Shown: positions 13,831 through 34,606 of the stretch, one piece after another
How positions within the stretch are numbered: position 1 is the stretch's first letter
Layout: each line of letters opens with the position of its first letter
Assembly: GCA_964535425.1 (NCBI GenBank)
Contig: CAZHSZ010000001.1
Span: 32,489 to 80,023 of the forward strand
Source: an uncultured Candidatus Saccharibacteria bacterium
GTDB lineage: Bacteria; Patescibacteriota; Minisyncoccia; Phycocordibacterales; Phycocordibacteraceae
Length of the DNA stretch: 47,535 nt
Direction of reading: 5' to 3'
The notes under the pieces: model-generated
The model's database searches: none
The model's input: the letters and a program-made list of their open reading frames with translations, nothing else
Told to the model about the DNA's origin: nothing
Position numbers and translations under genes: made by a program

Positions 13831-13847
13831 ACAGGGAAGTCGGATAC

Positions 13848-13874
13848 GAAAAACGCTTCCGGAAAACGGAAGCG
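13848..13874 (-). terminator. Minus-strand intrinsic terminator (possibly also serving the + strand cohesin operon)
   Basis: Stem cgcttccg / cggaagcg. On the minus strand it is followed by TTTTTC; on the plus strand no U-tract follows. Confidence 0.5.
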
Positions 13875-13998
13875 TGAAGGTGTGACGCAGAGAATCCAAA
13901 AGGAGCAAAAAAACGAGACTCCAAATTAAAGAACCGACTCCGGGCTCTTAGCTGTAGGGTTCTCCCAAATGAACCGCCCTGGCTAATCTCCGCGTCAC
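13848..13998 (-). ncRNA. Candidate sRNA B (about 150 nt), unknown family
   Basis: Minus-strand promoter-like TTGACC-N17-TACGGT just upstream. The 5' segment GTGACGC (13998-13992) pairs with GCGTCAC (13888-13882) immediately before the terminator hairpin. No coding potential. Confidence 0.25.
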
Positions 13999-14112
13999 AT
14001 AACTACCGTACGTGACCCTTTGATACGGGTCAATCATTCCACTCTCTCCCTACTCCCCCGCGAGATAAAAAACGGCCCACTCTAAGGCTTTCTAGGTAAT
14101 CTCGGGAACCCG

Positions 14113-14280
14113 AGAAAAGAAAACCGTCCGCAATCCTTAAGGATTCGGACGGAATAGAAGTAGCGCGGGGTTGGACTATTGGGGCGAATCATTCATATCT
14201 CTATTCATGGGAATCGGGGTCACACGAACAGAAACTGCCATGAGGCAAAATGACGCGCTTGTCTCACCAACCCCGCACTA
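14113..14280 (-). ncRNA. Candidate sRNA A (about 170 nt), unknown family
   Basis: Minus-strand TTGACA (14312-14307) plus TG-TATAAG (14292-14287). The RNA would start at a 10-bp helix, GCGGGGTTGG (14276-14267) / CCAACCCCGC (14174-14165), enclosing about 90 nt. It would end at the hairpin ccgtccgaatcc/ggattgcggacgg followed by TTTTCTTTTCTC. Confidence 0.3.
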
Positions 14281-14507
14281 AGACACCTTATACAAGTAAA
14301 AATAGCTGTCAACGAGCGTATATAAGGGTTTTAACGGCATGCCACTTCCCCGATTTTTACCGAAAGCGGGGAAGTGGTCTCGGGTTTTGTTTTTTGTAGT
14401 ATTGAAAAATACGCAGGATATATAAACGGAAGAGCAATTAAAGCCTATACGCCGTAAAAGAAGATTGGGCGACGCAGGGAAGGGACCCGCGTCGTCCAAT
14501 CTTCGTT

Positions 14508-14564
14508 ATCTTTTACGACATACTTAGTCCTAGCTCTGCCTAGGCTAAGTATGTCGTAAAAGAT
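14508..14564. repeat. Perfect 20-nt inverted repeat (25-bp hairpin with inner extension)
   Basis: atcttttacgacatacttag (14508-14527) and ctaagtatgtcgtaaaagat (14545-14564) are exact reverse complements. Inner cctag/ctagg extends the stem around a 6-nt loop. Confidence 0.9.
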
Positions 14565-14771
14565 ATATTGTGCGACGCGTACCTATTCTGACCGGAGCAC
14601 TCTCGGAGCCTGAAAATGATGAATACGAAACCGCTCCTTCTCCCCTCTTTTCCACCTACCACTACGACTTTTACCGGCTCGAACTTTATGCGGGTATACG
14701 GGAATAAAAATGTAGAAAAAACTTTTTTGACCCCTTCCCCGAAAATCCGAAAATGGCGGTGGGGAGGGGCT

Positions 14772-24178: not shown

Positions 24179-24781
24179 ATGGCTGACCGTTTAGAAGACT
24201 TGGCGCGCGCATTCGAACGCTTCCCTGGCATAGGCCCGCGTCAGGCGCGCCGCTTCGTATACCATCTGCTTGGCGCCACTCCTTCTGACCGCTCGCGCAT
24301 GGCGGATTTGATTACGAACCTCGCAAGCGATGTGCGCCAGTGCACCGAATGTATGCGCTTTGCTAACGGCGGCGGACTCGTATGCTCGTATTGTGCAGAC
24401 ACTGCGCGCGACGACTCGCAGCTCTTAGTCGTGGAGAAAGACCAGGACCTGCTTGCGCTTGAACGCGCCGGTACCTACCGCGGTCGCTACTTCGTACTCG
24501 GCGGTGTGCTCACCCTCTCAGGTAAGGGCGTGATACGCGAAAAGGAGTTATTGCGTGCGACGGAAAAACGCCTTGCGAAGGGACTCACTGAAATTATCCT
24601 CGCGCTCTCGGCGACAAGCGAAGGCGAGAATACTGTGGACCACCTCCGCCTCATCCTCACTCCGTACCGCGACAAGGTGAAGCTCACCGAGCTTGGGCGT
24701 GGGCTTGCGACCGGTTCAGAGCTTGAGTACTCCGACGCCGAAACTCTCTCGGGCGCACTCCAGAACCGAAAGGAGACGTAA
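24179..24781 (+). CDS. recR: Recombination protein RecR
   Basis: FERFPGIGPRQARRFVYHLL (HhH), Cys4 zinc finger CTECMRF...CSYC, Toprim region. Starts 2 nt after the dnaB stop. Confidence 0.95.
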   Translation: MADRLEDLARAFERFPGIGPRQARRFVYHLLGATPSDRSRMADLITNLASDVRQCTECMRFANGGGLVCSYCADTARDDSQLLVVEKDQDLLALERAGTYRGRYFVLGGVLTLSGKGVIREKELLRATEKRLAKGLTEIILALSATSEGENTVDHLRLILTPYRDKVKLTELGRGLATGSELEYSDAETLSGALQNRKET

Positions 24782-24783
24782 AG

Positions 24784-24813
24784 AAAAACCCCGCGGAGGC
24801 GGGGTTTTTCTTT
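24784..24813. terminator. Bidirectional intrinsic terminator shared by convergent recR and rplU
   Basis: aaaaaCCCCGC-ggag-GCGGGGtttttcttt. Abuts the recR stop (24779-24781) and the rplU stop (24812-24814). Confidence 0.75.
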
Positions 24814-25129
24814 ATGCTACTGCGTCAATCTTTACCTTCACGTACGGCTGCTTGTGGCCGCGGCGCTTCAAGTAGCGGCTCTTCGCCTTGTATTTGACCA
24901 CCTCGATTTTCTTGTGGCGGCCCACCATAGCTACTGTGCCTTTTACGACTGCGCCTTTTACGGAAGGAGTACCAACGTTTACCGTCGTACCATCATCAGT
25001 CATAAGCACCTCGGAGAAAGTCACAGAATCGCCCTTTTTAAGGTCTCCCGGGAGCTTCTCAATAGTCACAACATCGCCCTTGGCGACGACGTACTGCTTT
25101 CCGCCCGTCTTTATTACCGCTAGTTCCAT
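24812..25129 (-). CDS. rplU: 50S ribosomal protein bL21
   Basis: MELAVIKTGGKQYVVAKGDVVTIEKL... matches the L21 N-terminus (MYA(I/V)I.TGGKQ). Track ORF extended to 25189; ATG 25135 (MTMELAV) is an alternative start. Proximal promoter TTGCCT-N17-TACTCT ends 9 nt before ATG 25129. Confidence 0.9.
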   Translation of the reverse strand: MELAVIKTGGKQYVVAKGDVVTIEKLPGDLKKGDSVTFSEVLMTDDGTTVNVGTPSVKGAVVKGTVAMVGRHKKIEVVKYKAKSRYLKRRGHKQPYVKVKIDAVA

Positions 25130-25177
25130 AGTCATCGAAGAGTACCGTAAAAGCCTTATAAAGGCAATATAAAGGCA

Positions 25178-25307
25178 TATAAACAGCAAAGGGACAGGGT
25201 TATTAAGCCTGTCCCAGTGCCGAGACTCGGATCACCTCCTTTCTAGTGGCTGGAAAAGAGAGGCGAACCGCCTCGGCGAAGGTATGCGGCAACCCGCTAC
25301 CTCGGCT
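25178..25307 (-). ncRNA. Candidate ~125-nt RNA (or attenuating leader) carrying a 16-nt perfect complement to the 16S rRNA 3' tail
   Basis: Starts about 7 nt after the consensus promoter. Contains AGAAAGGAGGTGATCC (25244-25229) with no start codon at usable distance. Ends at the hairpin GGGACAGG/CCTGTCCC followed by TTTGCTGTTT. Confidence 0.35.
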
Positions 25308-25313
25308 GTACGT

Positions 25314-25341
25314 ATTATACATACTAGTATCAAAGTGTCAA
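25314..25341 (-). promoter_or_regulatory. Consensus sigma70-type promoter TTGACA-N16-TATAAT
   Basis: Minus strand reads agaggg TTGACA ctttgatactagtatg TATAAT acg. It follows the rmuC stop directly. Confidence 0.7.
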
Positions 25342-25347
25342 CCCTCT

Positions 25348-26403
25348 TTAGTCCTCTTGCGATGAACCTGGTTTGTCGAGCGCCATAGGCTCTATCCCGA
25401 GCTTTTCCCCCGTAATCCGGTAGACATCCTTATCTATCTTCCCGAGCTCCTTGTACCCGCTTGTATAGTGGCTTACAGCTGTACCGAGAGCCGTTCCGAG
25501 CTTCTTGTAGTACTCCTCATAGGAGCCTATATGCTTGCCGAGCTCCCCTACCCGCTTCTGGATTTCCACGGCTTTCTCCTCGATTTGGAGCGCTTTGAGG
25601 CCCTGCATCACGGTCTGGAGGTAGGCCAGGAAGGATGTCGGCGAGACGATGATGACTTTATACTTGGAGGCCGCCCTCTGGATAAGGTTTTCCTCTTCGC
25701 CTGCTCCTACTTGGTTTACGAGAAGGTCGTAGTAGATGCCCTCGGACGGAATGAACATGAATGCGAAGTCCATGGTGTCTTCCTCGGGACGGATGTACTT
25801 CGCCGTTTCCGTAATGCGCATCTTGAGGTCGTTTACGAATGCTTTTTCCAAAGCCGGCTTCTCACTCTCAGGCGCTTGTATGAGGCGGTTGTAGTTTTCC
25901 AGAGAGAACTTGGAGTCTACCGGCACCACTTTCTTGTCGATGAATACGACCGCATCCACGATTTCGCCGTTTTTGAACGGATACTGGATTTGGTAGAGGT
26001 TCGGCGGAAGCACGTTCTTCAATACCGTCTCGAGGTAGTACTCGCCCAAGACGCCGCGCTGCTTCGGATTTTTCAAAATATCCTGAAGGCCCTGGAGCTG
26101 CTTTGCGTACTCGCCCGTCTGGCGGCCGATTTCCTTCACGCTCGTAAGCTCTTCCGTGATTTCCTTGATGAGCTTCGCTGAGTCACTCACTTGGCTCCTC
26201 ATGGTCTCGTGCACCTGCTTTGCGGATTCCATCATGCGGGTATCCAAGGAGCGCTCGAGGTTTTCCATCTGCTTCTGAAGGAGCATCAATCCGCCGGTAT
26301 CGGCCTCTACCGGCTTTTCACTCCGCTTCAGTATGAAATAGAGGCCGATGCCCTGTACGAGCACGAGTCCGAGAACGATGAGTGCGACGGTGAAGATATC
26401 CAT
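25348..26403 (-). CDS. rmuC: DNA recombination protein RmuC
   Basis: 351 aa. N-terminal TM, long coiled-coil, C-terminal region FAFMFIPSEGIYYDLL...VIIVSPTSFLAYLQTV typical for RmuC. Confidence 0.85.
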   Translation of the reverse strand: MDIFTVALIVLGLVLVQGIGLYFILKRSEKPVEADTGGLMLLQKQMENLERSLDTRMMESAKQVHETMRSQVSDSAKLIKEITEELTSVKEIGRQTGEYAKQLQGLQDILKNPKQRGVLGEYYLETVLKNVLPPNLYQIQYPFKNGEIVDAVVFIDKKVVPVDSKFSLENYNRLIQAPESEKPALEKAFVNDLKMRITETAKYIRPEEDTMDFAFMFIPSEGIYYDLLVNQVGAGEEENLIQRAASKYKVIIVSPTSFLAYLQTVMQGLKALQIEEKAVEIQKRVGELGKHIGSYEEYYKKLGTALGTAVSHYTSGYKELGKIDKDVYRITGEKLGIEPMALDKPGSSQED

Positions 26404-34534: not shown

Positions 34535-34606
34535 TGACCCTACGGGGAATCGAACCCCGATTTAAAGCTTGAGAAGCTTCCGTCCTAACCGTTAGACGAT
34601 AGGGCC
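34535..34606 (-). tRNA. tRNA-Glu (anticodon CUC), no encoded CCA
   Basis: Hand-folded: acceptor GGCCCTA/TAGGGTC (one G-U pair), D-arm GTCTAACGGTTAGGAC typical of tRNA-Glu, anticodon stem GAAGC/GCTTT with loop TTCTCAA, T-arm CGGGG-TTCGATT-CCCCG, discriminator A. Confidence 0.9.

Follow-up and report, generated by a model that had tools for sequence, protein, structure and literature searches.

A promoter-led, predicted structured RNA between rmuC and rplU in a Saccharibacteria contig, and its possible descent from a small membrane-peptide gene

Why should a perfect complement to the 3' tail of 16S ribosomal RNA (rRNA), set behind a perfect promoter, have no start codon to serve? The question is raised by a 47,535-nt stretch of DNA from an uncultured Candidatus Saccharibacteria bacterium, a member of the candidate phyla radiation (CPR), referred to here as the window. 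Between rmuC and rplU, the gene of ribosomal protein bL21 (L21), its minus strand carries a consensus sigma-70 promoter, a 16-nt string resembling an extended Shine-Dalgarno (SD) sequence, and a terminator-like hairpin. A preliminary description of this DNA offered two explanations, a stand-alone small RNA (sRNA) of ~125 nt whose 'super-SD' binds 30S subunits or the 16S tail, and an autoregulatory leader or attenuator of bL21. The comparative analysis presented here leans toward another origin, in which the region descends, on balance and with modest confidence, from a lineage-specific gene for a small membrane peptide, miniaturised and stripped of its open reading frame (ORF), and is an independent, constitutively transcribed unit. 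As to present activity, our best guess is that it is neither a ribosome decoy nor a regulator of rplU.

The promoter-to-terminator unit

The promoter that follows the rmuC stop codon (25341-25314) is the only exact match to TTGACA-N16-18-TATAAT in the 47.5-kb window, a pattern that none of 100 dinucleotide-preserving shuffles reproduced, and the only 12/12 site in a promoter scan of 20-30 kb. An RNA running from the predicted start to the end of the U-rich tract (~25307 to 25181; Table 1) would measure 127 nt, in line with the ~125-nt species proposed earlier, and its predicted fold contains three hairpins, the last being the GC hairpin that, with its U-tract, precedes rplU (25215-25181). A simple terminator scan did not list this hairpin because of its 9-nt loop and interrupted U-tract. 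Only 14 nt separate the end of the U-tract from the -35 hexamer of rplU's own proximal promoter (TTGCCT-N17-TACTCT), an arrangement kept in relatives; this promoter yields a near-leaderless mRNA and is the downstream boundary of the element, not part of it. With its own promoter, its own terminator and no convincing ORF, the unit has the make-up of an independent sRNA gene. Neither the rest of the window nor the CPR loci were found to contain a further copy.

The SD-like 16-mer AGAAAGGAGGTGATCC (25244-25229) is an exact complement, at 16 of 16 positions, of the canonical Bacillus-type 16S 3' tail GGAUCACCUCCUUUCU. It is unique in the window, a single match being returned even with up to three mismatches (<=3), and the chance expectation of an exact 16-mer in a window of this size is ~2e-5 by an arithmetic estimate. 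No ATG, GTG or TTG was found 3-13 nt downstream of it. On these points of anatomy, namely promoter, 16S complementarity, missing start codon, terminator and separate rplU promoter, the preliminary description is borne out. Three other identities were considered and rejected: a 16S gene fragment on the plus strand, whose flanks are unlike helix 45 (h45); a tiny ORF following the SD-like string, which has no start codon, AUC lying only 2 nt away; and a tRNA-like RNA, signal recognition particle (SRP) RNA or 6S RNA, for which there was no Rfam match.

Folding and accessibility of the SD-like segment

Compared with shuffled sequences, the RNA alone folds with a z-score of -6.2, and the leader extended through the rplU ATG with a z-score of -4.8. 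In the minimum-free-energy structure the pairing partner of the 16-mer is the pyrimidine tract CGCCUCUCUUUU, which gives the sequestering hairpin anticipated from the sequence, and 14 of the 16 positions have an unpaired probability of <=0.08. Opening the 16-mer costs +13.9 kcal/mol, to be set against duplex energies of -10.7 kcal/mol for a 7-nt SD core and -28.4 kcal/mol for the full 16 bp with GGAUCACCUCCUUUCU, so that the core would be insufficient to open the hairpin and the complete duplex would suffice. At equilibrium the 16-mer is thus predicted to lie buried in the hairpin and not to be displayed as a 16S decoy, and the proposed super-SD binding to 30S subunits or the 16S tail finds no support, given a 22-bp hairpin that takes about +14 kcal/mol to open. 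When the 16-mer is held open in a constrained fold, the 5' arm refolds into the small hairpin GAGGCGGUUCGCCUC (25274-25260), which could be a metastable intermediate formed during transcription or could act as a weak early terminator. Since the 5' arm is transcribed first, a brief co-transcriptional interval with a free 16-mer is conceivable.

Conservation of the RNA among close strains

The RNA hardly varies between strains in which the flanking genes differ by 8-10%. Two carriers (contigs L082 and L083) differ from the window by 8-10 nt per 100 nt in rmuC and by only 3 and 1 nt, respectively, in the 161-nt promoter-to-terminator unit, one of these differences mapping to the predicted start and the rest to the terminator loop. 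Five further contigs (L182-L186) carry a unit identical to that of the window, and altogether the nine other carriers (eight complete, one partial) either match the window throughout or depart from it solely at the predicted start and in the terminator loop. At the rmuC rate ~11 differences would be expected in the 127-nt RNA, and two or fewer (<=2) have a Poisson probability of ~1e-3, to be read with the proviso that the comparisons are not independent. Such an excess of conservation points to purifying selection or a recent sweep, and near-invariance among ~93%-identical strains suggests that the RNA is probably functional. Covariation is uninformative for this type of RNA, as its copies are near-identical and the data hold no diverged homologue.

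Contents of the rmuC-rplU slot in relatives

Contigs whose L21 is identical to that of the window fall into two classes, both of which keep the rplU promoter. One carries the element (L082, L083, L084 and L086, plus L182-L186), and the other an oppositely oriented gene. In the latter class (L081 and L085, with flanks ~92-93% identical to the window) the interval from the rmuC stop to the rplU -35 hexamer is occupied by a 112-aa gene on the opposite strand, which has its own AGGAGG and encodes a helix-hairpin-helix (HhH) domain resembling the C-terminal domain (CTD) of RNA polymerase alpha (Pfam E = 2.5e-10). The gene occupying the slot measures 112-113 aa across L081 (5493-6007), L085 and L187, the last of which also contains a second, 146-aa gene and a separate non-coding promoter-plus-terminator unit of ~230 nt.

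A different occupant is found at somewhat greater distance. In four contigs whose L21 is 89% (L087) or 88% (L088-L090) identical to that of the window, a 12/12 TTGACA-N16-TATAAT promoter adjoins the rmuC stop; downstream of it, GCGGAGG-N6-ATG begins an ORF of 49 aa (L087) or 47 aa (L088-L090). In L087 and L088 the ORF opens with ATG-CGT-GAT-CCG-AGA, its product (MRDPRK...) has a charged N-terminus and one hydrophobic helix, and a hairpin with U-tail homologous to that of the window follows. L098 and L099 (L21 82% identical) combine a weaker promoter with GAAAGGAGG-N5-ATG and encode a 41-42-aa hydrophobic peptide, the reading frame of which is kept despite many nucleotide substitutions. Yet another group (L094-L097 and L190) has a promoter and 150-190 nt devoid of a credible ORF, the outer terminator stem there being formed by a purine run, GGAAGGAGGG or GGAGAGGG, and its partner, CCCUCCUUUUCC or CCCUCUUUUUCC; homologous ORF-less units occupy the slot at L094:1770-1990 and L190:75-300, and L190 contains another three anti-SD-like motifs of the CCUCC type. 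In many relatives a promoter-plus-terminator unit of some sort adjoins the rplU promoter, and in more distant ones the slot is unrelated in sequence or empty. A homologue search with the 47-aa peptide gave no candidates, Pfam and PADLOC searches with the relatives' peptides nothing significant, and Rfam no match over the L088 cassette. The slot is hypervariable, holding a membrane-peptide gene, a helix-hairpin-helix gene, an ORF-less RNA, or nothing. The preliminary description had held that absence of the element from close relatives, or a conserved small ORF with a valid start after the SD, would count against its proposal. Strains L081 and L085 do lack the unit, and relatives do have a small ORF with a valid start, although upstream of the SD-like string and not after it.

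Evidence against an L21 leader

The unit is a separate transcription unit and not an L21 leader. An Rfam cmscan of the whole window at gathering threshold returned only tRNA-Glu (34535-34606) and no L21 leader (RF00559), and a permissive scan (E <= 10) over 24700-25500 again found no L21 leader, only chance-level terminator look-alikes. The weak look-alikes (RsmY, Leu leader and others) are due to a hairpin with a 16-bp perfect palindrome, TAAAGAAAAACCCCGC..GCGGGGTTTTTCTTTA (24779-24814), which lies between the convergent rplU and recR genes as a bidirectional terminator. A leader of rplU was accordingly rejected for want of a covariance-model match, because a terminator and rplU's own promoter intervene, and because element and L21 do not consistently occur together: some strains with identical L21 have another gene in the slot, the element is missing or replaced in L081, L085, L092 and L001-L009, and among GTDB genomes searched with L21 the closest species (<=71% L21 identity) are without it. 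Whether relatives keep the upstream unit, lack it or carry something else in its place, the rplU promoter itself is conserved, and rplU has no SD. The second of the two explanations offered earlier is thereby set aside.

Proposed descent from a small-peptide cassette

Local alignment of the window unit with the L087 and L088 cassettes reveals a series of short identities. The block GAAAGGAGGTGAT is identical at 13 of 13 positions to the 3' segment that follows the ORF stop in L088 (E = 0.004), and is the best-conserved segment between window and L088 outside the promoter. In addition, GTGATCCGAG is identical (10/10) to codons 2-5 of the L087/L088 ORF, TCTCGGCA (8/8) to the segment just before the L087/L088 terminator, and the terminator tail GTCCCTTTGCT is common to all three. 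These blocks acquire meaning from the predicted folds of the cassette mRNAs, in which the vicinity of the start codon pairs with the 3' end. In L088 CCGAGA..CACUCUC near the start pairs with a 3' GGAGGUGAU..UCUCGG, and in L087 CCGAG..AGUCCCCA with a 3' UGGGUACU..UCUCGG, giving minimum-free-energy structures whose 5'/3' duplexes reach -24 and -25 kcal/mol as opposed to -12 +/- 3 kcal/mol for shuffled partners (P ~0.002-0.004). The window keeps both partners, CCGAG-N8-CCUCUC and GGAGGUGAU-N5-UCUCGG, with only a 10-nt loop between them. We infer from this correspondence that the long hairpin H2 may be the counterpart of the fold-back helix of the small-ORF mRNAs.

The scenario that would connect these observations is as follows. 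In an intact mRNA such as those of L087 and L088, the 3' segment would fold back onto the first codons and close the mRNA. Loss of the ORF body in the window lineage would have joined the two fold-back partners by a 10-nt loop, leaving a very stable local hairpin in which the 16-mer is the 3' partner, composed of the cassette's SD-like string and UGAUCC. What is produced today would then be a structured RNA with a normally masked SD-like arm, the retained regulatory or structural shell of a toxin-like mRNA. By this account the SD-like string and TCTCGGCA would have been inherited from a small-ORF cassette and would not have evolved in isolation, a further point on which the super-SD proposal loses ground.

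Several observations weigh against this account. Apart from the 13-mer and the rplU promoter region, the shared blocks have individual E-values of 0.07-4, and the interior of the window unit cannot be aligned with L088; the deletion scenario is consequently a reconstruction. Cross-combinations of L087 and L088 arms pair about as well as the cognate ones in this comparison of two sequences, so that the fold-back is supported by energy and not by clean covariation. The cassette can do without the SD-like string, which L087 lacks. Nor would a mere relic be expected to have a perfect promoter and to be strongly conserved, and a 29-aa ORF (UUG 25292 to UAA 25203) is still open. Scans of the window, L087, L088 and L098 detected no antisense promoter. 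Finally, the label 'toxin-like' is given to peptides that match no known family, and stands by analogy only.

Features of the locus

Table 1. Elements of the minus-strand unit and of the adjoining rplU promoter
Feature	Position	Strand	Basis
Consensus sigma-70 promoter TTGACA-N16-TATAAT, adjoining the rmuC stop codon	25341-25314	minus	
Promoter hexamers: -35 TTGACA, 16-nt spacer, -10 TATAAT	-35 25336-25341; -10 25314-25319	minus	sequence
Predicted transcription start	~25307	minus	inferred from promoter spacing
5' hairpin H1, GAGGUAGCGG..CCGCAUACCUUC	25303-25279	minus	minimum-free-energy fold
Weak candidate start site GAGG-N7-UUG, within H1	UUG 25292-25290	minus	read from sequence
Long hairpin H2, 22 bp	25277-25219	minus	minimum-free-energy fold
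H2 5' arm, GCCGAGGCGGUUCGCCUCUCUUUU	25277-25254	minus	fold
Alternative small hairpin GAGGCGGUUCGCCUC, then UCUUUUCC	25274-25260	minus	terminator-like scan match and constrained fold
H2 loop, 10 nt	25253-25244	minus	fold
SD-like 16-mer AGAAAGGAGGTGATCC (RNA AGAAAGGAGGUGAUCC), most of the H2 3' arm	25244-25229	minus	sequence
H2 3' arm, GAAAGGAGGUGAUCCGAGUCUCGGC	25243-25219	minus	fold
Terminator-like hairpin GGGACAGG/CCTGTCCC (as RNA GGGACAGG-CUUAAUAAC-CCUGUCCC)	25215-25191	minus	sequence, fold
U-rich tract TTTGCTGTTT (RNA UUUGCUGUUU), 3' end of the unit	25190-25181	minus	sequence
rplU promoter: TTGCCT 25167-25162, N17, TACTCT 25144-25139, 9 nt, ATG 25129	25167-25127	minus	

The neighbouring RmuC (25348-26403) matches the RmuC-domain model of RTasRmuC, a defence-associated reverse-transcriptase system, in PADLOC (E = 1e-18); no reverse transcriptase is adjacent, and the match probably reflects the shared RmuC domain only. 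Elsewhere in the window, an intergenic gap of ~786 nt (13831-14615) has no long ORF in a crude gene call and no Rfam match. A search of the window for SD-led small hydrophobic paralogous ORFs yielded none that was convincing.

Translation initiation in the window and its relatives

The L21 relatives are metagenome-assembled genomes (MAGs) of Paceibacterota, Minisyncoccia and Parcubacteria. In most of the 44 long ORFs in the window, 7-11 nt separate the start codon from a -10-like hexamer, which often has GG in front of it (GGTAnnnT; for example at 2912, 6210, 17663, 18165, 19033, 21366, 22821 and 26403). This implies that their mRNAs are leaderless or nearly so. A strong, well-placed SD precedes just one of the 44, the gene 1577-786 (AGGAGG-N7-ATG), so that the earlier impression of a mostly leaderless, SD-poor genome is roughly right. 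Canonical SD spacing is seen in the clade in this gene, in the HhH gene of L081 and in the small ORFs of L087, L088 and L098, which argues that the anti-SD is functional in this clade. A search for rRNA (16S 3' ends) in the window and in all fetched loci found none, and complementarity of the 16-mer to the organism's own 16S tail is presumed.

Alternative explanations

Complementarity to the 16S tail far beyond chance, together with a consensus promoter and an RNA under constraint, invites the view that the unit yields a functional sRNA interacting with the 30S subunit or with the 3' tail of 16S rRNA, either as an anti-SD-masking decoy disfavouring the few SD-led mRNAs, foreign or toxin ones for example, of a mostly leaderless genome, or as a self-stabiliser of the STAB-SD kind, for which an untranslated 30S-binding SD provides precedent (PMC4113751). 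The gain from the 16-bp duplex outweighs the cost of opening, self-folding of the 5' arm (25274-25260) may leave the 16-mer briefly free, and the best-conserved block outside the promoter in the comparison with L088 is the one containing GAAAGGAGGTGAT. We nonetheless consider such a role unlikely. The unpaired probability of the 16-mer at equilibrium is ~0, an ordinary 7-nt core does not repay the opening energy, and descent from a cassette explains the string, which stands there beside a real ORF. Furthermore, L087 lacks the string, the close strains L081 and L085 lack the entire unit, and the anti-SD motif was found in no more than 48% of the 16S genes of Parcubacteria (PMC9297842). Of the stand-alone sRNA proposed earlier there remain the anatomy, with promoter, terminator ahead of the rplU promoter and near-invariance, while the activity of binding 30S subunits or the 16S tail is not supported. 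That the unit still encodes a small protein, the 29-aa MPHTFAEAVRLSFPATRKEVIRVSALGQA read from UUG 25292 to UAA 25203 with GAGG 7 nt upstream and with the 16-mer serving as codons, is doubtful. This frame is open in the predicted transcript and closes with a double stop, TAATAA, in the terminator loop; its sole change in L082 is a conservative Ala-to-Val substitution at the last codon, and relatives do encode peptides at the slot. Against this, the UUG start and its 4-nt SD are both buried in H1, the peptide is not hydrophobic, is unrelated to those of the relatives and has no Pfam match, and there is no diverged homologue by which coding constraint could be gauged.

The opposite strand offers a further candidate, a plus-strand RNA across 25229-25244 that would carry GGAUCACCUCCUUUCU as an anti-SD mimic and repress SD-led mRNAs, for instance those of paralogous peptide genes, in the manner of a type I antitoxin; the unit would be its template or partner. 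Convergent, overlapping RNAs are found in the type I system par/Fst. Such pairs are frequent in type I systems (PMC6733600), hairpins fold on either strand, and a weak plus-strand TTATAA-N16-TATAAA lies in the AT-rich rplU promoter region. However, no plus-strand promoter passes a relaxed scan, none is conserved in L087, L088 and L098, there is no plus-strand terminator, and the orientation of the U-tract fits the minus strand, which makes an antisense regulator very unlikely. Slightest of all is the prospect of a bL21 leader or attenuator, whereby transcription begun at the distal promoter would continue past the hairpin into rplU, subject to control by L21. The unit does lie immediately upstream of rplU, its interrupted U-tract makes some read-through plausible, and many relatives have a promoter-plus-terminator unit beside the rplU promoter, but no Rfam model of an L21 or other ribosomal-protein leader matches, the slot varies in sequence between relatives whose L21 is 83-100% identical, an oppositely oriented gene stands in its place in L081, L085 and L187, and rplU has a conserved promoter of its own and no SD for a leadered mRNA.

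Comparison with known regulatory RNAs

Descent from a small membrane-peptide gene brings to mind the type I toxin mRNAs, which are kept inert by 5'-3' long-distance interactions and embedded anti-SD hairpins (PMC6733600). Like hok and the aapA1/aapA3 genes of Helicobacter (PMC6733600), the relatives of the window unit have a strong constitutive promoter and a single-helix hydrophobic ORF of 40-50 aa; the 3' end of their mRNA is predicted to pair with the translation-initiation region, SD-like and anti-SD-like segments are embedded in their transcripts, and the window may preserve the fold-back helix as a local hairpin. The differences are equally clear. No antisense antitoxin promoter was found, although a weak or unconventional one is possible; the relatives' peptides match no known toxin family and are candidate toxins by analogy only; a small hydrophobic ORF of that kind, with its ribosome-binding site, is missing from the window copy; and the pairing is reversed, an SD-like, purine-rich 3' partner pairing with codons here whereas an anti-SD pairs with the SD there.

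Other parallels extend to single features. The STAB-SD of Bacillus thuringiensis cry3A (PMC4113751) is likewise a GAAAGGAGG-type SD complementary to 16S rRNA with no start codon after it. It is single-stranded and near the 5' end of a long mRNA, where the bound 30S subunit shields the coding RNA from RNase J1 (PMC4113751), whereas the window string lies 63 nt from the 5' end, is locked in a hairpin, and is followed by a terminator and no gene, the transcript containing only the doubtful 29-aa frame. With the L21 leader (RF00559) and other ribosomal-protein leaders the unit shares its place as a structured RNA immediately upstream of rplU, but there is no covariance-model match, a terminator and the rplU promoter lie between, and it is not conserved with L21. 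SD-sequestering platforms of riboswitches and thermosensors similarly pair a pyrimidine anti-SD tract with a strong SD and have an alternative upstream hairpin, yet downstream of the window SD there is no start codon or ORF to regulate.

A recurrent SD-like module in other contigs

A metagenome scan for AAGGAGGTGAT-N3-8-TCTCGGCA returned 78 loci, and IMG/VR four contigs. Many of these are ordinary coding or true-SD matches, but several unrelated groups share the order seen in the window and in L088, a stop codon that falls within the motif or directly ahead of it, followed by the SD-like string, a gap of 3-6 nt, (A)TCTCGGCA and, immediately, a GC hairpin; neither the 'A' before TCTCGGCA nor the hairpin is imposed by the search pattern. 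Spacer length varies, and the groups therefore do not share a reading frame. At least five unrelated contexts (>=5) are represented: the CPR lineage, YadA-like adhesins, a 74-aa lipoprotein-like gene, small basic ORFs, and IMG/VR viral contigs. The module is found in ~25 contigs, one of them viral, downstream of genes for YadA-like trimeric autotransporters (Proteobacteria-type proteins), in six contigs after the 74-aa lipoprotein-like ORF, in L114 (11299) after an Arg-rich ORF of 27 aa that has a GAAAGGAGG SD of its own, in L173 (927) after a 32-aa basic ORF, and in the viral contig L179 (8314). Loci with AAGGAGGTGAT(C) comprise L100, L106, L108, L118, L142 and ~20 similar ones, the L117 group, L114, L179 and L173. 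Rfam found nothing over the module in ten module-bearing loci, its only match being a C4 antisense RNA (RF01695) in L106, away from the module, and a blastn comparison of the YadA-associated module with annotated phages and plasmids gave no match. In L108 and L126 a partial tRNA 3' end, GGGGTTCAATTCCCTACCCATCA, lies ~150-230 nt after the module, behind the YadA-like gene, which suggests that these contigs carry integrated elements with att sites.

The recurrence of SD-like string, ATCTCGGCA and hairpin may reflect enrichment, the motif being a common SD, or a real 3' module. Selection for rRNA-mRNA pairing near stop codons as an aid to termination has been argued for in a preprint (bioRxiv 10.1101/2020.07.24.220731). 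If 'SD-like AAGGAGGUGAU(C) + 3-6 nt + (A)UCUCGGCA + hairpin' were a genuine, widespread 3' RNA module acting through the 16S anti-SD, a proposition that we regard as improbable, it could trap read-through or post-termination ribosomes or give rise to 3'-derived sRNAs directed at the anti-SD, and the window RNA, highly expressed and ORF-less, would be its free-standing version, selectively titrating or masking the anti-SD against SD-led foreign or toxin mRNAs in a Parcubacteria genome whose genes are mostly leaderless.

Implications

The rmuC-rplU interval is a clear example of gene turnover in one intergenic slot of a CPR genome, where what was once the gene of a small protein seems to have shrunk to a structured RNA that still has a strong promoter. 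It also urges caution, since a perfect SD complement should not be taken for a ribosome decoy without comparative context. Should the less favoured role at the 16S tail nevertheless prove true, the RNA would represent a new way of biasing translation between leaderless and SD-led mRNAs in the CPR, where about half of the Parcubacteria reportedly have no anti-SD motif (PMC9297842).

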